Shown here in pieces: positions 16,749 to 64,000 of a stretch of DNA of 64,000 nt (position 1 is its first letter; the number at the start of each line of letters is the position of its first letter). Source of the DNA: Lama guanicoe (taxonomy: Eukaryota). Below the pieces are notes generated by a model. That model made no database searches. It was not told the origin of the DNA and worked only from the letters and a program-made list of their open reading frames with translations. The DNA lies in NCBI GenBank assembly GCA_013239625.1, contig MU053881.1, forward strand, positions 6,595,957 to 6,659,956. Reading direction: 5' to 3'. The position numbers were made by a program, and so were the translations under genes.

Positions 16749-18343
16749 ATTGACTTCATAATATTGGTCCGAGTGTATTTAGTAGGAGATCATTTTTTTC
16801 CCCTTAATACTAAGTGGATGAACAGAGTTTCCCATATCACATACACATTAAAAGTGGTGTTTTGGACCACATGGTGATGGTGCTAGCATAGGAGCCTATG
16901 TGTAGTATAGACCTAATAGCAGACCAAAGATTCCATCTGGAGCTGGCTTACTTGTTGAGCTACTAGGTGTCCAGGACAGAGAAGGAAATTTTAGAGACAA
17001 ATACCTGCTCATTGCTATTGCTGTATCTTTGGAAATTTTATGTAACTTCTCTAAAACTGTCTTCTTCCTTGTATAAAAGGAACAATAATATCTACTTTTC
17101 AGGGTTATTAAATTTTTTCCCTTAGAGTGTTATTTTGAGGGTTACATTAGCTCATGTATATAAATGCACCTGACATTATTCCTGGGACATTGTAGATGCT
17201 GAACAAATGTTAATCCCTCCCTTTACCTGGGTTCCTGGAGGCAGTATTAAACATATGTTCTCGGTATTTCGACTTAATCCCCTCATTACTATAACATTAG
17301 GTGAATGACTGATATCTTCTGTGGTAATAAAGTCAAAAGCTGCACTTGAGAAGTTAAAGCAGGGGAAGGAAGATGGTTACCTTTGAATATGGAAAGGAAG
17401 AATATTTCTACTGTAACATTAACCTTATAAGGAAGTAAGAAACTCTTGCATTAATTTGTAATCTTGGTGGGATGTCTATTCTGAAGCTCTGAACAGGGAT
17501 GAAACACATTCTCTGGGGATCTGGTGGAGAACAGAGACTTTACTCAATTGTTACGACTGGCAAGCTGAATTTGGAGTTTTAGAAGAGCACATATAAGGGG
17601 CTGAGTAGCTAGGAAGAATCTCTATGTGCATACAGAACTATTCTTCCCAATTGTTATATTTCAGGTGGATTTTAAGAAAGAAAGTTTTATGAATGTGTTT
17701 CAGCTTTCAAAATCTCAGGGAAACATGATCATAGACTTGCAGAATCATAGATTCACTAAATTTTCGCTAAAGCTTAAAAAGCTCTTACATAGGGCTCACA
17801 TATACAACAGATAAAGTGGAGCTGGTTTTATAGAAGCAAGAAACAAGGGCTTATAGTCTGCTTTGCCACCCTCGCCTGTGCCTTCCCCCCCAAAAAAACC
17901 CAAAGCAAAGATATCTTTGGGTTACTCTAGAATTTCACAAAGCAGAGATTGAAATTCATCAATATTCTCATAGAAAACTGAGATTCAGATAAAACAATGA
18001 TTTGACCAAGGTTAAACAGAGACAGATTATTGAAAGAACCCAGGTCTCTTAACTCTTGGTGCAGAACTCATCCAACTACATCATTCTGTCCTTCAGTCTC
18101 TGGTCTACCTCAGCTTCAATTGGTTCTTTAGCTAGTCCTTTGTATTTCATTATTATGTGAAACCTCTCAGAAGAGGAATTCTGTCTACATTCTGCAGTTA
18201 TGGAAGAATATACATCGAATATGCATTGTATATACATTGACTATACCTTGTTGGAGGCTGGTCTTATTTAATGCATTGCTCATCAAAATTGGAATCTCTC
18301 CAGGAACCTAATGTTGTAGGAATTATAGAAAAGCTATGTTCTA

Positions 18344-18771
18344 ACCGACAACATAACGCCATTTGCAGCAACATGGATGCTCCTGGAGAATGTCATTCTA
18401 AGTGAAGTAAGCCAGAAAGAGAAAGAAAAATGCCATATGAGATTGCTCATATGTGGAATCTAAAAAAACCCCAAACAAACAAAGCATAAATACAAAACAG
18501 AAATAGACTCACAGACATAGAATATAAACTTGTGGTTGCCAAGGGGGCAGGGGGTGGGAAGAGATAGCCTGGGATTTCAAAATTGTAGAATAGATAAACA
18601 AGATTATACTGTATAGCACAGGGAAATACATACAAGATCTTATGGTAGCTCACAGAGAAAAAAATGTGACAATGAATATATACATGTTCATGTAAAACTG
18701 AAAAATTGTGCTCTACACTGGAATTTGACACAACATTGTAAAATGATTATAAATCAATTTTAAAAAGTTAA
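18344..18771 (+). mobile_element. 5'-truncated young L1 3' end
   Basis: gccatttgcagcaacatggatg...attctaagtgaagtaagccagaaagagaaag...tgtatagcacagggaa..., A-rich tail, 15-bp TSD aaaagctatgttcta / aaaaactacgttcta. Confidence 0.88.
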
Positions 18772-19288
18772 AAAAACTACGTTCTATTTGGAACACAATC
18801 TCATGGAGAGAAAGAAAATAGTCTTCGTTTCTTGAGGTCCTTTAACCTTGGGCACCAAACCACTAACTTCGTAGTAATAAACAGTGTGGTTAACCCAAAT
18901 TTTTAACTGCAGTCTTACTAAGGAATGGAGCTACACTCATGGCTGATGATGAGGCTTTAGAGTAAGGGTTCTTATGAGGGTTGAGGGTTAAGGATTGGGG
19001 AAAGGAACTGACATTTATTTGTCTTCTAATTGCTAGGCACTGTGATTAGCCTTTTATAAAGTCTTTTACCACCATAATCTTCCCAACTACTTAAAATTAA
19101 TCAACACAATGACTTTTAAAAGTCATTGGCTTCTACCAACAATAGTTATCAGACAACTTGAGGGAGGATTTTCTCGTATTCTGCTAGTTTCACATAGCTA
19201 GTAATCTACCAAGACTCAAATGCATATAGGAGGGGAAGAGAAGATCCTAATCGCCGCCTGCTCCCCCACCACTCTCCAGGCGCCACGT

Positions 19289-19309
19289 TTCAGCACCACG
19301 GACAGCGCA
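19289..19309 (+). promoter_or_regulatory. REST/NRSF binding site (RE1/NRSE)
   Basis: TTCAGCACCACGGACAGCGCA matches the canonical RE1 TTCAGCACCACGGACAGCGCC at 20/21 positions. Confidence 0.92.
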
Positions 19310-19470
19310 TCACTCCGGCGTTTTGAAGAAGGCGGGGATCAATACAGCTCTGATTCAGCCCGGCTTTTTCAAATCTCTCGGGTCTCCGCTACTTTCCATG
19401 CATTTTCTAAACTACTCTCACAACAATCTAAGCTGAAAAACACATTCATGTAAACCGAGGGTTCGCTTAC

Positions 19471-19579
19471 CGTCTGACAAGTCAATCAGCCCGAGGTAGT
19501 GCAAAAGTTTCAGAGAGGAGCACACGACCACCACTATTCCCAGGGTTTGAAGCCCCTCGGACTCGCCCTCCGCCCACAT
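19471..19579 (-). CDS. KCNIP1: Alternative first coding exon of a Kv channel-interacting protein (KChIP) gene: N-terminal transmembrane KIS-domain-like segment, 36 codons + 1 nt (partial CDS)
   Basis: Translates to MWAEGESEGLQTLGIVVVVCSSLKLLHYLGLIDLSD. Ungapped match of EGL-x13(hydrophobic)-KLL-x3-GLI[DE] to the remembered KChIP4a N-terminus EGLEMIAVLIVIVLFVKLLEQFGLIE. ATG has a purine at -3 (aggATG). Exon ends GACG|gtaagc (plus strand cttac 19466-19470), phase 1, compatible with the KChIP core exon starting at Asp (DKIED in KChIP1). Paralog assignment is inference, because the sequence differs from 2x/3x/4a. Confidence 0.82.
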
Positions 19580-19760
19580 CCTCACGGAACACTGGCGCAC
19601 CAGCAAGACGCCAAGCGGGCATTTAAAGCTCGAAAACCAGGCTTCCGAGCCTCCCTTCCCGCTGTTCTAAGTGCACTGTTTATTTCCACTCTTCCTCACA
19701 GTCTCTCCCTCCCTCCCTCCCTTGCACTCCTCCCTACTCCCTCCACCTTTCTCCTCCTCC
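19580..19760 (-). promoter_or_regulatory. Putative promoter/5'UTR of the transmembrane KChIP exon
   Basis: TATA-like TTTAAAT on the minus strand at 19621-19627, about 42 nt upstream of the ATG. Local CpG enrichment 19250-19660 in otherwise CpG-poor DNA. Purine-rich tract (minus strand) at 19700-19760. Confidence 0.55.
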
Positions 19761-20559
19761 TAGCTGGCAACCTCTACATTGTTTCATAGTAGTTTTTGCT
19801 TTTATTTCCTATTCTCCCAAGGCAGTTCCCCCCAAACGTTTAACCAACCCCTAAGCATCTGCTACCCGAGGGTAACCACAATTGGCAACGTCTGACAGTA
19901 TATGCCCTCTGCAACTCAGAGGGAATGCATGTGAGCGTAGACATAAAGGAAAACACCTAACAGCTTTTGATCTGAGATAGACTTAGAGATGAAGGCTATT
20001 TTTCAAAAGGACAACAATTTGTATTACTTCAGTTAAAAAAAAAACAGTCAAGCTTATTCTGGAATACAGACATCACAAAGTATCCTTGGAAACTGAATCA
20101 TCAAGAAAGTAATTGTGAACTGGGCCATGTCCACCGTTAAATTTTGTTTGGGCAGGTTTTATATCAGTATTAAAAATTGTTAAGAGGATAGTCAAGCTGA
20201 CTAAATGATCACTGGGCAGCACTGAATGAGCAAATTTTCTGGAAATAAAGCAAAAAACAGTGAAGCAAATATGATATTGGTGTATCCTAAACTTTGGGAC
20301 TCTGTGGGGAATTTACAATTTTCCTACACTGGATTGTCAGCAGTGAGCCTGGTGGGGAAGGGTATCATGTGATGAAGAGAGAAGACTGGAGATTAATGTC
20401 ACAGAGACCTGTCCTTGGGAAAGTTCCTTGGTCTCCATGAGGCCCAGTTTCCTTTTATTTGAATAAACCTACCTCAACTAAGAGAACCCATACCAAGTGT
20501 GAGAACAGAGTGTGTACTTAACAAATGCCGGTCTCAAATTTTGAGACTACCCCATGTTG

Positions 20560-38100: not shown

Positions 38101-40239
38101 TCATTCATACAAACATTTTGGAGTTTTGAAAAGTGACTGGGTCTCATTTTGTCATGAAACTGATTTAGAATGCCCCGTCACTTCAAGTCTGTAATGTTCT
38201 AATGCTCTTTGGGACTAGGGACATCTTGAGATAAGCTTATCTCTTTGTACCTTTCTCCACGCTCCTCCCCCCATCAGTGGGACAGGGTAAGGAGTAACTG
38301 TGCTAGTGCGCATCAAGAAATAGGCCAGAGTGGGCAGTAAACAGTACGTCTTACCATCATTCTAATCTTGGGATCCCAAAGGGGCCAAGAAAAAAAAAAT
38401 CCAGGGGGTTATATGAACAGTAAAGTCGTGATGAAATGGAAATAATTCCAATAGTAAAAGCTCGTCTCTCAAGGTTAAAGTTCTGAAAGATTAAAACAAG
38501 GAACAAAAAGGCAAGGAATCTGGTTTTAAAAAAAAAACAGAACATTCCCTGAGCTGTGCATTTTAGGTTTTCATTCCACTCCACATACTTGTGAACATGC
38601 AAGATATTTTTGAACATGCAAGACTCTGGGGAAGCCTTCAGGAAAGAATTATTTAAAGAAACAAGGAGAAAGGAAGAAGGGACTTCTCCAAAAAGTGTCA
38701 ATAATTCTTCTTCTTCTGGGTGGTAGGAATTCAAGGGACTTGCTTTTTCTTTTCTCTAGTCCTGTGTATTCTCCAAGTTCTCCTGAATGAACACAGGTTA
38801 CATTCATAATAAACCCCAGGTTCCACGTTCTCCCTTGTGTCTCCCCTGTACCCTCCCACACCTCTGCCATGAATCTCTTTGAAATACCCTAATTTGGGTG
38901 CCCATCTGTTTCTTGTTGGGATCCTGAGATACACTTGCCCTACATGGAAGGTAATTGTCAGCATGAAAAGAGCAAAGCAAAACAGTGTCATGAAATTCTG
39001 GTCAGAGGTGGCTGCTTGCCAAAGGCTTCTAAAGCCCCGCCTGCCTTCTTTTGGTTATGAAACAGGAAAGCGGATGGGGGAATACTAGCTTGTATTTGAG
39101 AAGTGTTAAAGGCATGCCGGCAAGTAACACAATTTGTCCTTGAAGGACGCAGAACGGAAAGAGAACGCAGCCCGTGCGTCTCCACATTTTCGACGCTGGG
39201 CCCGGGCATCACCTAAGCAGTCTCGTGCACCACAGACCCCGTGTTTTGGGAAACATCGGGGGAGAGGGCTGCTCATGTTCTGTCCGCTGTGAGACCATCA
39301 GACTTTGTAGGCTCCCAGGGCCCAGGCAAGAACCTAAGAAGTGTTCTGTGTTCAGACACCGTGGAAGACACCGTTGGGTTAGAAATTTGGGACTACTGTA
39401 GCTTTTGGTGTGACCCTTCTCAATGCAAATCCGATCAAGTTGCTTGGCTCCATTCATTTCTCCCTATTCACTCACTCACTCACTCACCAAATAGTTCCCA
39501 TGCTCTTGCCACAGCCTGGCGCTGCGCTAGATCCCGTGGCCTCAGTGGAGTACGAGACAGGCCCTATGTTGGCTCGCCACCACCAGCAGTTAGAGAAGGT
39601 CTATATACAGGTAGGAGGTCCCCCACGTTCTGCCCCTTCCCTTCTGCTCCTAAAACTCATCTCCTGCCATTTCTACAAAAAGTGATCACAGGTGTGACAC
39701 CCCATACCCTTTTGGCTGCTGCAGAATCCCTCATGTCAGTTTTTTTGTTTTTGTTTTTGTCTCTATGCCTTTGCTTATATGACCTCTCTGTCTGCAATGT
39801 CATTCCTTTAGGCCCAGCTTTGGTGTTCCTTCTTCCATCAACGAGCCTCCTTAGCAACTCTTCAGTGGCCCCCGTGAGGGCTCCTGTTCCTGTGGTTATT
39901 ACATCCAAGGCCTCGTCTGTTTCCTTCCTGGGGTATGAATCCCAGGGAAGGAGGTGTGCAGGCAAAGCCTAGATATCATTCACTTCTAAATATGCCTGGG
40001 GTCTAGCAGTGAGTATGGCACCCACTTGGCGTGCAGTAAAGGTTTATTGAATGACTGAGTGACTGAGAGGAGATCCAGGGCTGCTGCCCAGCCTGGAGGT
40101 AAAGCCACCTCATTTCTACCAGTCTGCAGGTGTGCACATGCACTCTGGGAGCACCTGGTTTTGCACTAGTGCTGAAGCCTCTCTCACTGATCTTAACTCT
40201 CTAACTGAAGAGACTCCTTGGAGAGCCTCTGACACTATG

Positions 40240-46439: not shown

Positions 46440-47700
46440 AAGTACTTCTGCTGTTGAAAATGATGCTGCAACAAATAGTCTTGCGTATGCCTCTTAAAGG
46501 ACTTGCTCAAGAGTTTCTGTAAGGTAAATATTTAACAGTGGCACTGTTGGGTCATTTTGGGGTCATATTCAACTTTTCTAGGCATTGCCAAACTGTGACA
46601 ACAAGGTGAGCATACTAATTGGCTTTCCCACCAGGAACGTGTTCAGAGTTCCTGTTGCTTCATATTCTCCCTGATTACTTATTAAATTCCTGAATTCTCG
46701 TCAACCTAGTGATTATGAAATTGTGCCTCGCTGTGTTTTAATCTGCATTTTTCTGATTACTAATGAGGTTGAGCCACCCTGCATAGAACTATGAGCCTTT
46801 AAATACTCTCTTCTGTGACATTCCGTTTTATATCTTTTGCCCACTTTTTAATGTTGGAGTGTCTGTTTTTATCACCTTGGTTCTTAGGCCACATTTATAT
46901 ATTTGTGGATCCTAGGCTTCTGTTGGCTGTCTGTGCTGAAGGTGACTTCTCCCATGCCGTGGCTTGTTCTTTAACCCTCTTTAAAGTGCCTTTTGGCGGA
47001 CAGAGCTCTTAATTTTAACGAGTTCAAAATCATTCATCTTTTCCTTTACAGTCTGCACTTTCTGTATCTTGTTAAAGACATTCTTTCCTCACCTGAGGTC
47101 ATCCATATATTTTCCTATATTCTCTTCTGCAAGTTTTACCATTTTTCTTTTTCACGTTTAGGTATTTAATTCAATTCGTCTGGAATTGATTTTTATGTAG
47201 GGTGTGAAGTAGGAGTTCAATTACATTTTTTTTTCCTATCATAGATTACCAATAGTCTCAGCACAGTTATTTAAAAGTCTGCCACTCTTTCCATTTCTCT
47301 GCATGCGATGCATCAAGTATCCACCTCCACGGGAATCTTCCACTGAGCTCTTGTTTCCCGTTGCTCTGTTTGTTTATCTCTGCACAGCCACACTGCCCTC
47401 ATCGCTCAATTTATTTTCAGTGGAGGTACTGGGGATTGAACGCAGGACCTCATGCATGCTAAGCATGTGCTCTACTGCTGAGCTCTACCTTCTTCCCCAC
47501 TGGGAGCAGCTCTTAAAGTTCCCCAGATGTTTGAATTTAGATCAGAATTGCATCAAAATCATAGTGCATTTGGGGGTGGACTTAGTACATCCTTGCCGTG
47601 TGGAGTCTTCCAATCCAAGATCATGGCTTATGCTCTCCATCTAGATAGATAGGTTTTCCCTAATGCTATCGATCAGACTTCATTAATTCTTTCTTCCACA
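46440..47700 (-). mobile_element. Old L1M fragment (degenerate ORF2/3' region)
   Basis: ttttaatctgcatttttctgattactaatgaggttgagc...ctggaattgatttttatgtagggtgtgaagtagg. Confidence 0.75.
47408..47498 (-). mobile_element. Camelid tRNA-Ala-derived SINE (Vic-1 type), inserted in an old L1
   Basis: Reverse complement of the same tRNA-like head (tggaggtactggggattgaac...gcatgctaagcatgtgctctac). Confidence 0.85.
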
Positions 47701-52352: not shown

Positions 52353-54164
52353 GAACCTCATGCAGCTGAATCACTGAGGCAGAGAGAGGAGATCTGACCT
52401 GTGAACAAGTGTGTATCAGGTGGAACACGCGTGACTCTTGAATTAGAAAGTGCCTGGACAGGGAGATGGGAGGACAGGAGGGTTCTACAGGGGAGAGTGG
52501 GTCGTGGGGACGTGTGGGGGAAGTTATCACAGCCACAGACAGTCGGGCAATTACGGAGCTTGGGTACTACACGTTCGCCTGTATTACCTCAGTCACTCTC
52601 CACAACACACAACCGTATGAGTCTCATTTGTTATTGTTTCCATTATATGAGTGAGAGAAGTCAGTTTAGGAAGGTGAAGTAACTTGCCAAGGTCACACAG
52701 TTAGTGGCAGACACAGGATTCAACCCCAGGAAGCCTGGCCCCAGGGCCTGGCCCTCAGCTGCAGATTCCTGGAGGTGTGTTTGTTTTTCTTAAATATGTA
52801 ACAGGTAAGTGTTTGCTTATTTTTAAAACAAGTTACTGAAGTATAAATAGAACTGACTGTCAGTCTGGAAGAAAACTTAAAGATCATCTAACTAGAAGCT
52901 TTCAGTTTATTTTATCGCTATTATTGTTACCATTATTACAATTATTCATCAGTAGCAGTGATGGTAATAATGGCAGCTGGAGAGCCTTTGGTCAAACAGA
53001 ATCTCTCGTGGAACCTTGTGAAGAAAGGAGGGAGGCGGCCCCAGGTGAGGCAGGGTGTGCGGCCCAGGGAAACCAACCCTGGCCTCCTGTCTGTGTCCTG
53101 CGGAGGGAGCGACCCCACGTGGACCCGCCAACGCTCTTCCTGCGGCAGCCTGGCGCCGAGCCGTCCCCGGGCTGCTGCCGCCCTCTGCTGGTCACAGCTG
53201 GAATCGGAGGACATCTCCTCCCGGCGATGGGACACAGGAAATTCCAACCCGGGCAAGGGTGCTGCTGAGGCTCCCCGAGTACCCACCGCTCCCACAGCCC
53301 TGTCATCGCTGTGTGTGGAGGGGCCACGCGACTGGGTGGGAGCTAAAGGATGAGACTGCTTTATGTGGGGCCTGGTGCCCCCAGGTTAGCTCTGGACGTC
53401 TGGACCGGGTTGCAGAGGAGGAAGGGCCAGGCAGCCTGGAGAGGGCTGGGAGGAGGAGGAGGAGGAAAGTCCTACTGGAATGGCTGGGACCAGCCCACTG
53501 TGGCCTTTCAGTGACAGACCTACACCCTGAATCCAACAATTACTGCTCTTCTTTTCAGAAACTGCCGCTCAGAACAATCACACAACTTCCATCCCATAGC
53601 GGTCAAGACCTTGGACTAGGAGGTCAAACTGGATTCGAGTCGCAGGCACTAGATGTGTGTCCTTAGCGAGTCGCTTCATCTCTCCAGGGCCCACTTTCTC
53701 CTCGGGAACCAGGGACGCTGCGGGCCTTAGAGAGGAGAGGAACGGGCCCCCACGAGCCAGTGCAGGTGGAGGGCTGGCACACGCCTGGCGCGGGGCGAGG
53801 CTGGGAGCCGTGAGGCAGGCGCAGTTACTGTCACCACAGCACACTAGCAAATGCCTGCGGGGATTAGAAGCAGGTCTGGCTTGCTTCCCCTGAAGGGCAG
53901 GGAGGGAGCTGTGAGCCAGGACGCTGGAGCGTGGGCTCAGGTGACAGGTGGTGCTGTCTGAAATGCAGACTGCACACCTGGGCCCTCCAGCAGCCACCTC
54001 AACTCTTGCCTGAAGTCTGGGTGCTGGAGATTTCTGAGCACTTCTCCCTCCCACCCCAGGAGCCACACTTCTTCACTTGGGCACCCGCCACCCACTCTGC
54101 TTTGAGCTGGACAGAGAGACTATAGACAACTCTTTCTCCTGGGGTCCCTGCCCCATTTTGTTCG

Positions 54165-54545
54165 ACATTCGTTTATTCAGCAAATATTTACTGAATGCCT
54201 TTTCTGGGCCCACCTCCATTCTAGGGGCAGGGGGCTCGGCAGTGAACAAAATAGATGATCAACCTGCCCTCATGGAGCTTACACTTAAGCAGGGGTAAAG
54301 GGAGACAGGAAATCAACGTATAAACAAGTAGAATATGTAATGTGATCAAGAATGAAATATCAGGGAGAAACCAGAAAGCACAAGGAAGAGGGAGGAGGGG
54401 AGCTGTCTGAAATGGGTGGTTAGGGAAGGTCTCCCCAAGGGGACACTTAAACATAGGGAGGTGAGAGATTGTGGATGCCTGGGGGAAGGGCGCTCCAGGC
54501 GGAGGGTATATCACGAGCAAAGGCCCTGAGTAGAGGAGGGACATG
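54165..54545 (-). mobile_element. L2 fragment
   Basis: ttattcagcaaatatttactgaatgcct...cagtgaacaaaatag...cctgccctcatggagcttaca...ggttagggaaggtctc. Confidence 0.7.
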
Positions 54546-54618
54546 GTCTCATTTACTTTGTAGAGTATCCCTTTGTCTGCCGGCAAAGAATGGATTAAAA
54601 GAGTGGAAGGCAAGAGGT

Positions 54619-54747
54619 GGGGAGGGTGTAGCTCAGTGGTAGAGCTCATGCTTAGCATGCACGAGGTCCTGGGTTCAGTCCCCAGTACCTCCATTAAAAA
54701 AAAACCAAACAAACCTAATTACCTCCCCCCGAAAAAAACCAAAACAA
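54619..54747 (+). mobile_element. Camelid tRNA-Ala-derived SINE (Vic-1 type)
   Basis: GGGGAGGGTGTAGCTCAGTGGTAGAGCTCATGCTTAGCATGCACGAGGTCCTGGGTTCAGTCCCCAGTACCTCCA with A/B boxes and an A-rich tail. Direct repeat AAAAGAGTGGAA at 54597-54608 and 54748-54759. Confidence 0.88.
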
Positions 54748-56437
54748 AAAAGAGTGGAAAGAGGAGGGAGCGGGAGCTTGCCAGTGAGAAAGCTTTGCCA
54801 GCCATCTGGGGTCTGAGGAGAGGCATGTCTGGGCCAGTGGTTCCTCACTCTAAGAGGGCCAGGGAGGGGCTGCAAAGGACAGAAGAATCCAGGTACCCAA
54901 GCACAGGATATCCTGGAATACATGTGTGTGTCTTTATTCTAATCCGTGGTCGTAAAAATAATGTCAATTTTAAAATGTTGCCAATTCATTGTACGTTTTG
55001 AATGCATCTATGTTTTCTTTCAGCAGCTCCTACCCTTTGTTCTGTCGGTGGTGTGGACGGACTAGGGTTGAGGGCCTACCCAGGAGGTGGACTTTGAATG
55101 CTCACAGCCTAGTTTACAGGCCGGGCTCTGCTGCCACTACTATCCATGTCCTTGGGCAGATCGTTTCACATCGCTGAGCCTCTGTGTACCCGTCTGTGAA
55201 GTGGGGATGACAGGACCTGCCCCAGGGCCGTTGGTACTGTGGGTAGAGCACTCTGCATGCAGGAGGGTTTATAGGAGGTGCTCGCTTTCTGCCCCGCCTC
55301 GTGCCCCCTAATAGCCCGCCTCTGTTCTTGCTTTACCACGGGCTTGCTGTGTGATCGCGGGGGACCTGTCCGTCTCTTTGGTCCCTCATTTCCTCCCATA
55401 TCCAACAGGGATACATGCACGATGGAAAACACCTGTTCAGAGGGCTGGGATCAGGACGCGTGATGTGTCATATGGGTTGAGCCACTGATGAGGTCTCTGC
55501 ATTCAGAAAGCGCTCAGACAGTACTCTCCTTGTGGGTGGATCAGGGCTCCTGGCACAGAGGAGCAGGCCCGGGACAGCCCGGCCAGGTTCCAAGGCCTCG
55601 GGCCTGTCCACACAATCCCCTGTGGTTACCACTCTGACCTTTAGAGCGGCTGGTCCATTTGCCCTCTGTTTTCTGCCTCTGTTGTCCCTGTATATCCTTC
55701 CTGCCTCCACAGGCTGATGGGCAGAACTCCAGGGCCCAGGTCACTCCCTGGTGACCTCATCCTGCATCACACAGTCCTACACCCGTGACTCCACCATTTA
55801 TATCTCCCTCCAGGCTCCCTCCTGAACTCCAGACTCTGACCATCCTGATGGGGGCCACCATCCCCTCCCACTAGGTGCTTGTAGAAACTTCCCAGGTGTC
55901 CCCTGTTTCTGCTTGGGACCCCTCCCCCAGTCTCTGCACAACACAGCCGCCAGGGGGATCCTGTTACAATGCCGTCAGATCTTGTCTCTTTTTCACTGCA
56001 GACCCTCCTCCCTCTCTCCTGCAGAGTAACAGCCACAGCCCTTCCCATGCCCGCACCTCCCTGGCCACCTCACCTCTACCCTCCCCTGGGTTCTCTGACC
56101 CAGGCATGTTCCTGGCCTTGCACTGGCCGTTGATTCTGCCAGAAAAGCTCTCCTCTCAGAGACCCGCTCATCCACCCCAGCCGCCTTCAGGTTACACTCC
56201 ATCAGGCTCTCCTGACCCCTCTGGCTGACATTTCTGTTTGTTCCCTACTTGATTTTTTTTCCTTTGCTCTTACGACGGGATGTCCTACTTACTTCTGTTA
56301 CCTTGTTTGTTGTCTATATCTCCACTAGGGTGTCTGCTCCCCGGGATGTTGCTCCCTGATACCCCTCCACTCTAAGTCGCACCTGGCTCCCTGTACCACT
56401 CAGCGCGGATTTCTGCTCAGGCCTGTCTAGCCCTCTT

Positions 56438-56456
56438 TGGGCACCAGGTGGCGCCC
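56438..56456 (+). promoter_or_regulatory. Candidate CTCF binding site
   Basis: TGGGCACCAGGTGGCGCCC closely matches the CTCF core CCA(C/G)(C/T)AG(A/G)(G/T)GGCGC. Confidence 0.55.
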
Positions 56457-56729
56457 CACACCGCTCCAAGCTCCTGGCTTCCTCGGCCCTTGTAGGAATG
56501 AGAGATGCTGAGAATCTGCCCAGGGGAGGCCTGTGGCCAGATCCCCGCAGCGCCCTCGCCTTGAAAAGAGGATTCCTTCCCTGACCCCACAGTGAGGATG
56601 GCTCCTTTTAGATCTGGGGATTCATCATTTTTCCTCGTGGAAGAGGCTTCTCCTCGAGGCCTCTTCCTGGTTTAGTCTGGTCTCAAGTGCCCCTCGCCCT
56701 CCCCTATGCCAGGGACCCCTGCGGAGGGC

Positions 56730-56930
56730 CTACTGTGTGCTAGGTGCTGTGCTGGGTGCTTTTCCTCAGTTGTCCCACTAAATCCTCGCCATAGCTGTTT
56801 CCATTTGTAGACTTTGTGGATGTGGAAACGGGGGTTCAGAGAGGCCTGGTTGCTTGCCTGAGGTCACACAGCTGATAAGAGCAAAGCTGGAATTCGAACC
56901 CAGGCCCTCTTGACTCAAAGTCAGGGCTCT
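56730..56930 (-). mobile_element. MIR SINE
   Basis: cctactgtgtgctagg...ggaaacgggggttcagagagg...ttgcctgaggtcacacagct...ggaattcgaacccagg. Confidence 0.75.
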
Positions 56931-59368
56931 TCCGGTGTGTCAGATGTCCCCCACTCTCCCCACTGAGCAGAGAATGGCCTGGAGAGAAGGCAAAGCCGGA
57001 GGCGGCTGGTCCATCCTTAGGTAATCACAATTCAGGAACCAAGGACAGGAAATGACACTTGTTTGCACTGCCCGTTCATTTCATTTCATTTCCTTACTGC
57101 CCAAGTCCCTGACAACAAGGATGTGCAGACCGAGCCCAGAGAGGTTCTGGTACTTGCCCAAGGTCACGCAGCAGAGCTGTGTTCTTTCTTCCCACCTCCC
57201 AGCCTCGGGGGCCTGCAAAGAGCTGCCTGGGGTGGGGAGGCAGGGCTCTCCGCAGCCTGTGCCAAAGGAGGCCGCGTGCAGGGACAGCTGAGTAGACGCT
57301 CTTCAGGGCCTTGAAAGGAAGCACCCTGGGCGGGGGTGAAGCCCAGGAGGGGGCCTCTTTGGGTAGAAGGAGATACAGGATTTGAAGAGAGAGTAGCAAT
57401 TACAGAAGAATCGATGATCCAGAGGCTTTGGTGGGTCAGGGTCTGACCTCAGGGTTCTCGCAGGGGTTTCTGAGTCCCTTCCCTGTCCTGGCACCCGGGT
57501 ATTTACTTCCCTCATGCCTGCAAACCTGATGCTCACCTCCTGCTCCCAGATGCAGGTGAGTCTGGGCTGTGACAGGGGCAGGAGGGCAGGCCAGGAAGGA
57601 AGGGCCTTTGCTGTGGGGAGGGCTCAGCGCTGAGTGGGCAGACCGCTGTCTGTCTGTCTGTCCTGGATGCCGAGCTGGGCTGGGAAGGGGAGGCCCGGCT
57701 CTGACACGCTGGGGGTGTCCCCGAGAGGTGGTGGGCGTGCTTGACGTCATGGCGCTGCCCTCACTGAGCTGTGTGTGCAACGCTCCCCCTTCCCTGGTCG
57801 CCAGCTGGTCAGCGGTTACACGAGGATTCCTCCCAGGCCTGTGGCCCCGCGGCCCCCAGGGCTCAGGGTGGGAAAGAGGTCCTCACTAAACACTGACTGA
57901 GCCTGCCTACGCCCCAGGCCCTGCCTTAGTCTCTTCTTCCCACAGGGCTGTGAGCTTCCCGCGGGGAGGGGCTGGGCTGCATCAGCCCTTATCCCCGAAG
58001 TCGGCCTTCATCTCACGATCTCATCACCCTCACTCCTGCTCTTCGCCAGAGGAGCCCCGCCGACCCCTGCCCCCGGCCCCCGGCCCGCTCCGCAGGCCCT
58101 GACTGGCCCAGGGGATGGGCTGGGTGTCCCCGGAGAGTCCGCTCAGCCCCTGCCTGCTCCCCTCCCCAGCACCAGCCCCACCGGGAGGAGGACGGGTCCA
58201 AGCTCTCACCTCGGGCAGGTGGGAGAGGGGACCGTTTCCTTTCACAAAACCTATTGTTTATGGGGAATCTGGCCTGTCTGCTCTCTCTTTTTCAGGTTCA
58301 GGTTTAGGTGTGTTCCACAAATATGTTTGGGGTGCACTTGGTGTCACCTGTGCTGGGGATGAGATGGGACATGGGGGTGGGGAGCTGGGGGTGGCAGCCC
58401 TGAAGGCGGATGCAGTCCTGCAGGGGGAGGGTCCGGCTGTCCAGGGGTGCCAGCCAGGGCGCCAAGGTGGGGTGAGCACTGGCAAAGAGGCCGGCGCTGC
58501 CGGGGTGGGCGGGGGGAGAGGGTAGCAGGACCACCGCATCCCAGTTGCCACCTCTGGGCCAGAGTGGCTTCACGGCTGCAGGGCCTTCCATTGGCCGCAG
58601 GGGCCCTTCCTCACGCCCCCTGCAGGCAGATGGGTCTCTGACTGTCTTGCTGGGGGCCTGGATAGCCAGGCCCCCTCTCAGCATAGGGCCTGTTCCTGGA
58701 CAGTAGCCCCTTGGAGTCCTGGGTTTTGGCCTTACCCTTCTGGTCTGTCTCTTTCCTTCCAGCCCTGACCTAGGACCTTAGCCAAGAGGTATCTGTGTGG
58801 ACAAGTCCCCCACTCCCTGACCCCCAGGGCTCGCCCTGTCCGAATCCCCAGCCTGCCTCCAGCCTGCACCCCACCCCACCCTCAGAGCCCCCGGACCTGT
58901 GCCGGGTCAGGAACGAGGGTCTGAGTCCCAGGGCGGCGGGTTTAAGCGGCCAGGCTAGCGTGCGATCGATGCACGTGTCAGGGGTGAAGGAGGGAACAGA
59001 TGAATCTGAACGGCAAATCCACAGATGAGGGAGGCGGGGGGGGGCAAAGGGATTTGCCTTCCGGAGTCAGCCTGGAGCCTGATGGATGGAAGCACTTTGT
59101 GGGGGCTGGTGGGGAGGGCGAAGCCTGTCGGAAGCCCCGGGCGGGCTCCGGGCCAGAGCTGCCCGCAGTGTCATGGGCTGCAGGCTGGAAGGAGGAGAGA
59201 AGGCCCTGGGCAGATTTTCTGTCTGACCCTCAGTGCCTGGCCAGAGCTCCCCCATGGGGGCCGGGGGCCACACCTGCACTGTGCAGAGACCCCAAATATG
59301 AATCCTGCGAATTAACCTTGAGCTCCCCTCCAAGAGCAGCTCCATTACCAAAAACAAATGCACCACAG

Positions 59369-59370
<2 letters not shown>

Positions 59371-59416
<46 letters not shown>
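59371..59416. repeat. (GT)23 microsatellite
   Basis: Direct reading. Confidence 0.97.
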
Positions 59417-59420
<4 letters not shown>

Positions 59421-60026
59421 ATTCATATATTGATGGGCGTCTTAGCGGGACAACCAGGCTGGAGCAAGATCATTAAATCATGGCTTTAGAGCCCAGATCC
59501 TGGGCATGGAAAACGCCCCATGTCGCTTTCTATGACAGTTATGAAGAAATAAATGCCGCCTTCTTACTACATATGTTAACTGATTTTTTTTTCCCCATCC
59601 AGTGTTCCTGGCATCTTCCTCATAGGGTCTTGTGGCGGGTGTTACAGGCCAGGGAGCAAACAAATTCAAATGTGTGGAGTCAGAGAGACTGAAGCTGAAA
59701 ATTCTAGCTTTCATGCCTATTGTGCAGTTTTGAGGACCTTGACCTTCCGGAACCTCAGTTTCCCCACTTGTAATGATGGGGATAATTATCTGCAGGTGCT
59801 GTTATCAGGACGCGAAGCCCTGACTTGCACAAAGGGAGGCAGGTCCACCGTAGCCCTGGGGAGGGTTTGTCTGACCTCTTGGTGATGCAGGAGGCAGTGC
59901 GCAGGGTGGAGAGGGAGGGTGGGAGGGGGCGGCGGGCCATGGGCTGCCTGGGAAGGCGCTGGGCCCAACAGTTTCCACTTAGGACAAACACCACTGCAGA
60001 GACCCTCTCGGCTGCAGAACGCCATC

Positions 60027-60060
<34 letters not shown>

Positions 60061-60070
60061 CGCGTGTGTG
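60027..60070. repeat. Compound (TG)13(CG)6(TG)3 microsatellite
   Basis: Direct reading. Confidence 0.95.
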
Positions 60071-61204
60071 CTCGTGCACACACATGCACACTCTCGGGGG
60101 CCAGAGGGGAGCAGGTGACCCCAAAGGCAGGAAATCCCCATGTGCTTCACCACAAGTCGGGGTTGGGGGAGAGGAAGGAGGGCCAGGCCGGAATCCTGCT
60201 CCACACCTGGGAGATTGGACCAGGCATGGCTTCCGGGGTGAAGATTTTTTAATTAAAAGCTCTGACATTTACTAGAGAGAGAGGAAACCTGACATCCCCA
60301 TGCTGCTGAGATGCTTCCTTGGGGCCTCAGGGCTCTGGAATCAAGGGAGCCCCACACCCTTCTCCTCTCCAGCCCATCCTTTAAAGCATGAGCGTGTCCC
60401 CGGCCTGGGCCTCGGTGCTGGCGGGGCTGAGAGGGCAGGGGAGGGGGTGGGGGGCAGGCGGGCTTCCGCAAGCCTGGGCCTTTTGGTGCATGACTCAAGG
60501 AGGTATGAACGCCACAGGCTGGTTCAGAGCAGACCCTCCAAGTGCTGTCTTCAAGTCCAAGCAAAGTGCTGCCGGCTTCGGTGGACGCCTGAGGGCCAGG
60601 GACCGCCCCCGGTGCTCGGGCACTGTGTCCACGGGGTCAGCCAGGCTCTTGGGCCATGGCAGGAGGACCTGGAGTTTTGCCATTTTTCTGGGACTTGCAG
60701 TGACCTCAGCCCCTTTCCAGCACATCCTGGCTTCCTGAGAAGCAACAGCCGACTCCTTGGGGGTGGAGGGTGGCAGCCCAGGCTGGTGTGGGTCAGGCAA
60801 ACCTGGCTCTGGGCCCAGTGGGGAGTGCAAGGGGTTTGCTCGTGGGCAGAGGAAATCTGCCTGAAGGCACTCGAGGAGCAGAGCCAGCTCCCAGGTGACT
60901 CAGCGGGGATGTCCCCGGGGCCCCATCCCAGGTGGTGTGTGGATGCAAGACTGGGCCTGGAGGGGCTCAGCCTGGGCCTCGGGGCTGCTGATGCAGAAAA
61001 GCGATTAATGACCAGCCCTGGGAGGCCTGAGAGCCAGGCCTGGAGACACAGATATTCCCTATTATGACATTAATGTTTTTCTCATACAGTTCAGGGCCAT
61101 TAGCAGCTTTGTCACAGGAGCCGCCTTTGAGAGCCGCTGAACACCTGGTGGGCGGGCTGTGCCGGAGCTGGGGTGGTGGTCCTGACCGTCTTCCCCGCAA
61201 AGTC

Positions 61205-61230
61205 CACACACACACACACACACACACACA
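61205..61230. repeat. (CA)13 microsatellite
   Basis: Direct reading. Confidence 0.95.
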
Positions 61231-61504
61231 CCACAAAGGGATGGGGGACAGCCAGGGCCATGGCCCACATCGGCCCCCAGGGAGGACACTGGCCTCCGGT
61301 CCTGCTGCAGCCACCAGGTCACTTTCTCCCCAGAAGGTCACCTGCCTCTCTGTCCCAGGCTCCCAAGCCCGCTGGGCCTAAGACACAGCTCACACCCTCG
61401 CTGCGAGGGAGGCTGGGAAAATGAATATCTCTTCTTCTGGCTTCTCAAGAGGGAGGTGGACCCTGCCCCCCACCAAACTCATTAGATGGGGAGTTTCTCA
61501 AACC

Positions 61505-61600
61505 TGTCCCACTTGGACCCATCACTGGGTTCAAAGCAGCACTGTGCCCGTCCCAGTGACTCTGTAATGCGTCATATTGTTTTCCTGCCTTTCAAATGCT
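61505..61600 (+). repeat. Copy 1 of a ~100-bp dispersed direct duplication (copy 2 at 63018-63121)
   Basis: 88/96 aligned positions identical plus one 8-bp indel (hand alignment). Confidence 0.9.
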
Positions 61601-62287
61601 GAAATAGCCATCCCAAACCCTGCCAAAGATAAATGAGATTACATGCAACTGTGTGACAGCCTCACTGCATCGTGCCCCCAGACAGCTAGGCTGCAGCCCA
61701 AGAGGTCCAGCTTCTGACTCTTGTCCAGGCAGCAGTAGGACAGGAGAGGGGAGAGGGTGCCTTGGGGCTGCAGAGTCAGGGATGCAGCAAAGGACACTTC
61801 CCACCCCTGCCCACCCCTGAGTTAGCGTCCCTGTCCTGGTCCAGCACGGTTAGCTGGACATGGAGTTTCTAGTCAACTTGAAGCAGTCGCCCCAGATCGT
61901 CCCTTTCAGCAGTACCTACTCTTTTTCAGTTGGTTTCCTGGCTTACACGCAGGGAGCGGTGACACTTGCTCAGGGTGGTGTGGGAGGGGTTGGCATGCTC
62001 TCTCCACCCTTATCAGAAAGCCAGCAGGCTCTGATTGCCAGAGCTAAGAGCCTGGAGTCTACCAGTCCTGGGCTTGAATTTCAGCCTCCACCCTAATAGC
62101 TGGGGAGGCTTGGACAAGTGGCTGAGCCTGTTTCCCTGTGTGTTGAATGCAAGTACTCAGACCTGATGGCAGGGTTACTCTAAGACTTAAAGGAAGTAAT
62201 GATTCCAACATGCTTAGCATAGCGCCTGGCACACATACAGTCTGATCTCCACAACAGCTATGAGTGGTCATATCCTCCTCTGCCCAT

Positions 62288-62813
62288 GATGTGGGAAGCC
62301 CCATGTAAAAGACGGCAGGACCCTTAGGCAGGGCCATTACTCTCCTTCTAGCACCATTCAGTTAGTTCCCTGGCCCAGTGGCATTATCTCGCTTTTTAAC
62401 TCTGAAACCGCCTACTTCTAGGAAAGTGGAACTTACCCCTAAGAGTCTATTGGTTCCTTGAGCTAACTCCTGATTGGTCCATTTGTAGTGCCTCATTTGC
62501 ATGGAGCTCACTCCTGATTGGTCCCTTTCTATCACTCCTGATTGGTCTATTCCTACAAAGCTTGTTCCTAATTAGTCACCTTTGTTATACCTTATTTGCA
62601 TATGATGTTGCAAAGTATAGACTGGCAGCCTATAAAAACCTGTGTAAACCTACAGACGGGGTCCAGAGCTTGGAGTGTTAACTCCTCTGGGCCCGCCAGC
62701 GTAATAAACCTGAGTTCTCCAACTCTCGGAGTGCTGCTTGGTCTCTTGCCAGGATCCAGGTTGCTGACACAACTGAGCTGTAACACCGAGCTATAACACA
62801 CTTTGCTGCAACA
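62288..62813 (+). mobile_element. Solo LTR of an endogenous retrovirus (probably lineage-specific, ERV1-like)
   Basis: Repeated CTGATTGGTC CCAAT boxes, octamers at 62495 and 62594, TATAAAA at 62631, AATAAA at 62703, and a 3' end ...GCTGCAACA. The 5' boundary is uncertain and no TSD was identified. Confidence 0.75.
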
Positions 62814-63017
62814 CTTAGACCTTCCAGTGACCTCCAAACTCCTAACCACTGCCTGCAAGGCCCGCAGGGCCGGGGTCAGCCTCCTCCTTGGCCTCATTCC
62901 CCACCACTCACTCCATCCCTCACTATACCTCGGGCCTGCTATGTCCAGCGATGTTGCTGCCGCCTTGGGGCTTTGCCCGAGCTCCTCCCAAGGTCTGTGA
63001 CACTCGTGTCCCATTTG

Positions 63018-63121
63018 TGTCCCATTTGGACCCAAGACTGGGTCCAAAGCAACACTGCTGCTCAGTGCCCGTCCCAGTGACTCTGTAACGCGTTGTATTG
63101 TTTTCCTGCCTTTCAAATGCT
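63018..63121 (+). repeat. Copy 2 of the ~100-bp dispersed direct duplication
   Basis: tgtcccatttggacccaagactgggtccaaagc...gtgcccgtcccagtgactctgtaa...ttgttttcctgcctttcaaatgct. Confidence 0.9.
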
Positions 63122-64000
63122 CTGCACGCTGTGTAATCACTGCAACGGAAGGTGGAGGGACACATCCTGCTGCCCAGGATTTTAGCTGAAGCTTAAAATC
63201 TGTGGACAATGGCTGGGAAATTACCCTCAATAAAGAAATAGGACAAATACATGAACAGAGTTACTGGATGCATGTTAGACTTGCTGAGAGAAAGTGGGGT
63301 TGGTTTTGTGATGCCCACCCCATCCCAGTGTACAGGAGAGGCTAGATGTTTCTAAGGAGACGGAGGAAGGAAATTTGTAGGCGGAAAGAGCACTTTGGAT
63401 TTTTCTCTTTCCCTTCCATGCAGGGGGGCTCCCCTGGGTCACATCCCAGTGATGGGGAGCCAGGAGAACCCCTCCCAGACCTGAGGTGCCCATGTGAAGG
63501 GGACCCATGCCACAGCCAAGGGTCCTGAACTGCAGACACATAGTGTCTTGACAACAGAGCCCCTGAGAGAGAGAGACCGGGGTGGAGCGGGGGATAGGCT
63601 TCCTGTGTCCCTGGGGACTGGGGGGTGTATGTGAGCATAGAGACTGGAGGTTGCATCCCCTGGAGGGTTCAGGAGGCTGGGTCTGTGCTGAAGCAGTCTC
63701 AGGTGGCTGATTACAGAGAGAGGGCAGCTGAGCACTGCCATTTGGTAAGGCGAGGGTTTGCACGTTTCCTGCAGCCAGGGGCGCTGAGGAAGGTAAGCAG
63801 ACTTGAAGCATTTGCTTGAGATCCCCTCCCCTCCCTGCCAAGACGGCTGCTGCCGGCAGAACCCAGGCAGAGAGAGGCTATGAATGACTGAGGGGTGAAG
63901 AGGACCCAGGAGCGGGAGACATGGGGATGTTTACAGAAGCTCAGCTGGCAAGGGGCAACAGATGGACAGGCAGCCCTCCACCAAGGAGCCCCACAAAAGG

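Follow-up and report, generated by a model that had tools for sequence, protein, structure and literature searches.

An alternative KChIP4e-like first exon of KCNIP1 and its candidate REST-binding site in Lama guanicoe

KChIP N-termini decide both the arrival of Kv4 channels at the cell surface and their gating. In the available text of PMC3973911 and PMC7269670, the transmembrane KChIPs are given as 2x, 3x, 4a and 4e only, without a KChIP1 form; that of PMC10377897 describes the modification of KChIP1 as myristoylation and mentions two unnamed human isoforms. KChIP4e is described as carrying an LLH triplet and, over residues 10-32, a hydrophobic segment. It is reported to raise Kv4.2 surface expression and speed recovery while leaving inactivation unslowed, and a GFP fusion of its N-terminus was not recovered in the membrane fraction (the portions available of PMC3973911). 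Elsewhere, KChIP4e has been tied by correlation to slower currents in interneurons, with its kinetic effect on Kv4.3 called not known (PMC7269670, available text).

RE1 elements often lie next to promoters of neuronal genes, and public tables already contain a REST peak in KCNIP1. When bound in non-neuronal cells, REST recruits co-repressors. The BDNF exon II promoter is reportedly a case in which REST controls a single promoter of a multi-promoter gene. A second precedent is Grk6-207, for which the accessible part of PMC12632871 reports exon exclusion through Ezh2, direct REST occupancy being not yet shown there; this paper, PMC7012447 and PMC10605157, each in part, are drawn on solely for nomenclature and precedent.

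Here we describe a stretch of 64,000 nucleotides of Lama guanicoe DNA (the window) in which an RE1 adjoins an alternative first exon of KCNIP1. What is new is the tie between this site and an exon that is missing from RefSeq-based peak tables, together with the KChIP4e-like N-terminus that the exon would give to KChIP1.

An alternative hydrophobic first exon in KCNIP1

The exon lies on the minus strand, with its ATG at 19579, its last base at 19471, 36 codons and a phase 1 donor, ACG/GTAAGC (Table 1). Its peptide is identical to residues 1-36 of chimpanzee KChIP1 isoform X2 (P0013, 232 aa), in which it is spliced onto the KChIP1 EF-hand core. The same N-terminus heads KCNIP1 models, mostly predicted ones (XP_ or annotation-pipeline), from dog, horse, deer, whale, rodents, lizards, birds, a turtle and amphibians. 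P0046 includes two accessions that are presumably human. Judged from these models, the KChIP1 isoform headed by the 36-codon exon is conserved across tetrapods and already annotated in databases. An initial annotation of this DNA had assigned the exon to a transmembrane isoform with an internal promoter. The splicing of its homologs into the KChIP1 core supports its role as an alternative first exon within a KChIP gene. In a tblastn search of the window, neither the 19 kb downstream nor the 44 kb upstream held a further KCNIP1 coding exon, as would be expected if the gene is large and this first exon internal to it. A search of largely open-access literature, which did not extend to the primary papers on splice forms, returned no paper on a hydrophobic KChIP1 form by title or abstract opening.

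Table 1. Features at the KCNIP1 alternative first exon (window coordinates)
Feature	Position	Strand	Details
Small CpG-rich patch with leader, exon and RE1	19250..19660	.	GC 54.7%, CpG observed/expected 0.90, window maximum
Canonical RE1/NRSE	19289..19309	+	Antisense to gene; intron positions +162 to +182; 20/21 match
Splice donor ACG/GTAAGC, phase 1	19465..19473	-	From sequence; spliced homologs enter the KChIP1 core here
Coding part, alternative first exon of KCNIP1	19471..19579	-	36 codons + 1 nt; hydrophobic N-terminus, KChIP4e class; from translation
Upstream ATG, out of frame, overlaps TTTAAA	19482..19622	-	46-codon frame ending within the exon, if transcribed
TTTAAA, TATA-like	19622..19627	-	43 nt before the ATG; 53 copies on that strand
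Upstream element, putative promoter or leader element	19667..19676	-	Inferred from matching residues in N-terminal read-throughs

We also considered a cassette exon. This reading was rejected because the pyrimidine tract at the closest AG upstream (19594-19593) is weak, the sequence beyond it is purine-rich, and most spliced homologs start at the exon methionine or a few residues before it. In a number of other species (P0011, P0018, P0007), the counterpart of the out-of-frame upstream ATG lies in frame, and this difference between species suggests that the ATG is either untranscribed or unused.

Among the hydrophobic KChIP first exons returned by our searches, two classes can be told apart, and the window exon sides with one of them. 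It is identical at 25 of 36 positions to P0119, a KChIP4-type exon, and at 24 of 36 to P0149, which has a KChIP4 core and is named KChIP4-like. As a class, these KChIP4e-like exons (P0119, P0149 and P0041; 24-25/36) sit on KChIP4 cores and on fish KChIP2 cores. The a-type exons, comprising KChIP4a of PDB 3dd4 and KCNIP1 proteins P0047, P0065 and P0066, share just 7-9 of 36 residues with the window exon. Consistent with the published description of KChIP4e, the window exon contains the LLH triplet and a hydrophobic segment at roughly residues 10-32. By these comparisons the exon is a paralog of the KChIP4e-type exon and not of the KChIP4a/2x/3x type, the label 'KChIP4e' for P0119 following the description in the available text of PMC3973911.

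In a tree of 17 cores, both hydrophobic exon classes fell on KCNIP1-type and fish KCNIP2-type cores (the row for P0125 was under half filled). In one marsupial and two lizards (P0047, P0065, P0066), KCNIP1 has a separate KChIP4a-like first exon, and fish KCNIP2 has both classes; tblastn found no a-type exon in the window. Two hydrophobic exons may have been present in the ancestral KChIP gene and kept differently by each paralog.

The exon-encoded segment is only moderately hydrophobic, with a Kyte-Doolittle value of 1.92 over 19 residues (comparators, 1.99-2.45), compared to 2.17-2.45 in the KChIP4-type and a-type segments tested. When given an alignment, AlphaFold predicted a helix at residues 8-28, with pLDDT below 50 for residues 1-50; without one, the mean pLDDT was 42.7. 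A PDB search with the 36-residue exon alone returned no match. On these predictions, the term 'transmembrane' is plausible for the segment. The alignment to KChIP4a (PDB 3dd4) is ungapped over the helix. The ER-retention hexamer of KChIP4a, LIVIVL, faces VVVVCS in the exon, which has four aliphatic residues of six and falls short of the motif. The KChIP4a gating motif VKL faces LKL, so that the lysine and the critical leucine are kept; the available text of PMC3973911 places the LLH of 4e there instead. K24 is invariant in both hydrophobic exon classes.

The surroundings of the exon are CpG-rich. With 26 CpGs and an observed/expected ratio of 0.90, as against 0.27 for the whole window, 19250-19660 ranks first for CpG richness among the 411-bp stretches of the window, in agreement with the small CpG-rich patch holding both RE1 and exon that had been proposed. 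Lenient criteria for a CpG island ask for at least 200 bp, GC above 50% and a ratio above 0.6, and a stricter criterion asks for 500 bp; at 411 bp, 54.7% and 0.90, the patch is an island by the lenient definition and lies below the 500-bp one. Elsewhere in the window are a second, weaker CpG-rich patch (39050-39460, ratio 0.65) and a GC-rich block (53000-64000, 49-65% GC), neither with a KCNIP1 coding match. The TATA-like box named in the initial annotation is present as TTTAAA at 19627-19622, but it is not above chance, because of the number of copies on its strand and because no TATA(A/T)A occurs within 19560-19900. Squamate gene models P0029, P0033 and P0058 read through its position. As evidence for a promoter, in which a TATA box would lie 25-30 nt before the start site, we give the box no weight. 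Farther upstream, 19667-19676 appears conserved to birds and lizards, judging from read-throughs P0008, P0009, P0010, P0029 and P0033.

Several repeat-like features were also observed. Two tRNA-like Rfam matches of about 45 bits, at 47421-47492 (-) and 54622-54693 (+), are probably the heads of tRNA-derived SINEs, and 18330-18780 (+; approximate limits), about 500 bp beyond the RE1, to our eye resembles a LINE-1 3' end.

An RE1 downstream of the exon and its conservation

The plus strand carries a canonical RE1/NRSE at 19289-19309 that differs from the 21-mer consensus only at the last base. This is the sole match with at most three mismatches in the 64 kb, and none of 100 shuffles (0/100) gave such a match. 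The second-best RE1-like site in the window has seven mismatches. The RE1 has its two half-sites at the canonical 2-nt spacing, and no other site in the window has both. From the last exon base to the start of the RE1 is 162 nt. Both parts of the earlier description, a 20/21 RE1 and a position about 160 bp past the exon donor, were confirmed.

For conservation, we used database proteins that read from the exon into the intron (genomic read-throughs), keeping those of at least 50 residues; shorter ones end before the site. Peptide words derived from the RE1 occurred in 13 of 19 KCNIP1-type read-throughs, 47-57 residues after the donor (54 in the window), as against 0/19 paralog-type read-throughs and 27 of 5700 shuffles. 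Grouped at 90% identity, the 13 positives form seven clusters, one of which holds six of them, and as protein-level evidence they are blind to synonymous changes. Among the six misses, P0079 and P0080 stop just short of the site and P0036 scores 0.73 at offset 50; arctic fox P0021 and murid-type P0026 have a degenerate word at the right place, and squamate-type P0010 has none in 83 residues while retaining the exon. Pinniped-type P0006 and P0082 pass, yet they imply a change in the left half-site.

At this level of evidence, the RE1 is positionally conserved in several mammalian lineages, and the presence of a near-perfect 21-bp site in these implies selection. In the arctic fox, murid-type and pinniped-type proteins (P0021; P0026; P0006 and P0082), the RE1 looks eroded while the exon is intact, which offers a possible natural test of its role. 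Dog-type N-termini are more diverged. We also asked whether exon and RE1 form an ancestral unit common to the paralogs; this is unsupported, with no RE1 word within the lengths of the 19 paralog read-throughs.

Published occupancy data place a strong REST peak in the same gene. The human peak table of PMC4055426 (Table S2) has 51 KCNIP1 rows in nine distinct regions. One of these peaks, hg19 chr5:170,108,093-645, is listed in each of 15 types of non-neuronal cell and not in neurons, and this RefSeq-based table files it as plain 'intron'. In PMC4499139 (Table S2), the same peak outscores the seven other KCNIP1 peaks of H1 cells (4135, the next being 1027) and is the sole one conserved with mouse, where Kcnip1 has two REST peaks. 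KCNIP2 has a strong human-mouse conserved REST peak too (score 3211 in H1 cells; PMC4499139, Table S2), which in rat lies some 2.1 kb inside intron 1 (tables of PMC5103073). As stated in the available text of PMC4055426, REST occupied 234 of the 235 canonical RE1s of high confidence, and fewer than 10% of REST peaks in neurons carry an RE1. For the latter reason, the absent neuronal peak at the KCNIP1 site says little. We infer, by correspondence and not by alignment, that the window RE1 is the human-mouse conserved KCNIP1 peak, because rodent-type loci keep an intact RE1 behind the exon, because almost every canonical site is bound, and because the Ensembl coordinate of the exon agrees with that peak in human KCNIP1.

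Candidate roles for REST at the locus

The reading that we favor, with modest confidence, is that REST at the window RE1 shuts the small CpG promoter next to it in all cells but neurons and neuroendocrine cells and thereby gates a KChIP4e-like form of KChIP1. On this view, KCNIP1 would have an internal promoter with its own first exon, and a REST site of high affinity would lie some 160 nt inside the following intron. In non-neuronal cells, REST bound at the RE1 would bring co-repressors to the small CpG promoter and hold it off, and in neurons and neuroendocrine cells, with low REST, the promoter could fire. The product would be a 232-residue KChIP1 in which a hydrophobic KChIP4e-like N-terminus replaces the myristoylated one. 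Such an effect would be a permissive on/off gate between cell types, not a tunable kinetic switch. The exon promoter is most likely the main target of the RE1 because it lies a few hundred bases away, compared to more than 44 kb for the other known first exons. The 232-residue isoform would most likely affect where KChIP1 is located and how Kv4 channels are trafficked, more than how fast they inactivate.

Expression data bear on this reading at the level of genes. In tables that are gene-level and may list significant genes only, we found no KCNIP rows among the REST-loss supplements of PMC11015551 (11 files), PMC8851790 (10 files) and PMC11071216 (12 of 15 files), and Kcnip1 is absent from the REST-knockdown expression tables for rat neural stem cells (PMC5103073, 12 of 13 files). 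The ChIP table of the latter study has one Kcnip1 row, which refers to a different site, within a MER5B element; the table assigns peaks by nearest start site, and the conserved site could sit under a neighbouring gene. In the available text of PMC6965066, Kcnip2, not Kcnip1, is named among the genes whose expression rises when REST is inhibited. Heart, gut and pancreas are reported to express KChIP1 (PMC10377897, Table 1), and therefore some promoter must escape REST. Our literature search found no paper linking REST to a KCNIP1 promoter, and its three main-text matches to the human coordinate look unrelated.

Other explanations accommodate part of this evidence. The nine REST-bound regions in human KCNIP1 would suit a locus-wide silencer, in which the RE1 damps all KCNIP1 promoters together with other sites, lies beside the exon only through conserved open chromatin, and switches no isoform. 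Reports that intronic RE1s repress their promoters in reporters from 8-14 kb downstream (PMC9564192, available text) and that genes with several REST peaks are expressed lower (PMC4055426, available text) point the same way. Against a silencer of this sort, the site is of the only kind conserved between human and mouse, and its distance from the donor is held at 47-57 codon lengths in mammals; we regard it as possible but rather unlikely. We think it distinctly improbable that the RE1 is bound and does little, with the promoter kept off outside neurons by missing activators or methylation and REST acting as a redundant lock. KCNIP1 de-repression was not found in the four REST-loss data sets (gene-level, partly searched), and some carnivore and murid records show apparent RE1 erosion with the exon kept, as this explanation would have it; the form of those tables blunts the former point, and the selection implied by the near-perfect site in several mammalian lineages speaks against a redundant role.

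The initial annotation had further proposed that REST shifts the isoform ratio and with it A-type current kinetics. REST levels would then tune, within neurons, the ratio of a KChIP4a-like, inactivation-suppressing isoform, a possibility that overlaps with the on/off gate. The LKL opposite VKL in the alignment to KChIP4a, the invariant K24 and the correlation of KChIP4e with slower interneuron currents (PMC7269670) are compatible with this. The kinetic prediction is nonetheless weak because the exon belongs to the KChIP4e class and KChIP4e is reported not to slow Kv4.2 inactivation (PMC3973911, available text). The mismatch to the ER-retention hexamer, the lower hydrophobicity of the segment (1.92 vs 2.17-2.45) and the lack of a REST peak called at the site in neurons (PMC4055426, Table S2) also count against it, and we give it a slim chance. 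The initial reading is partly supported, by the RE1 and its conserved position in mammals, by the alternative first exon and by the strong conserved REST peak in a KCNIP1 intron, and its link to kinetics is weakened.

Returning to the gate between cell types, we tentatively extend it to a broader proposal that we consider fairly doubtful. KCNIP1 may encode an uncharacterised fifth hydrophobic-tailed KChIP, a tetrapod-wide paralog of KChIP4e with its own small promoter, at which mammals gained the sole conserved REST site, so that REST would choose between myristoylated and membrane-anchored KChIP1. If this is true and interneurons or endocrine cells make much of the form, a native subunit is missing from the physiology and structures of Kv4-KChIP1 that are based on KChIP1a/1b. 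Rises of REST in seizures or ischaemia would then selectively change the hydrophobic KChIP1 form. More generally, a deeply conserved form of KChIP1 with a candidate silencer of its own could matter for interneuron firing and epilepsy.

Comparison with known systems

The closest relative of the window exon is KChIP4e, encoded by KCNIP4 exon 1e. The two have in common 24-25 of 36 residues, the LLH triplet and the hydrophobic segment at about residues 10-32; the window exon differs in joining a KChIP1 core and in being less hydrophobic (1.92 vs 2.36-2.45). Unlike the KCNIP1 exon, the paralogous exons have no RE1 word behind them in their read-throughs (0/19). The KISD-type transmembrane KChIPs (KChIP4a, 2x and 3x) are distant homologs that likewise have a first exon spliced to an EF-hand core and a hydrophobic helical segment of about 20 residues. 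They differ from the window exon in identity (7-9/36) and in the ER-retention hexamer, which the window exon has partly lost.

On the side of REST, the locus resembles canonical targets such as intronic Fam57b and Syt7 (PMC9564192, available text) and the KCNIP2 peak (PMC4499139, Table S2) in its intronic 21-bp motif, and KCNIP1 is a neuronal ion-channel gene. In type, the window RE1 corresponds to sites that REST occupies in all non-neuronal cells. The KCNIP1 peak is filed as plain intron, and the window RE1 adjoins an alternative first exon. What the BDNF exon II promoter and Grk6-207 have in common with our proposal is that REST is tied to the choice of one transcript form.
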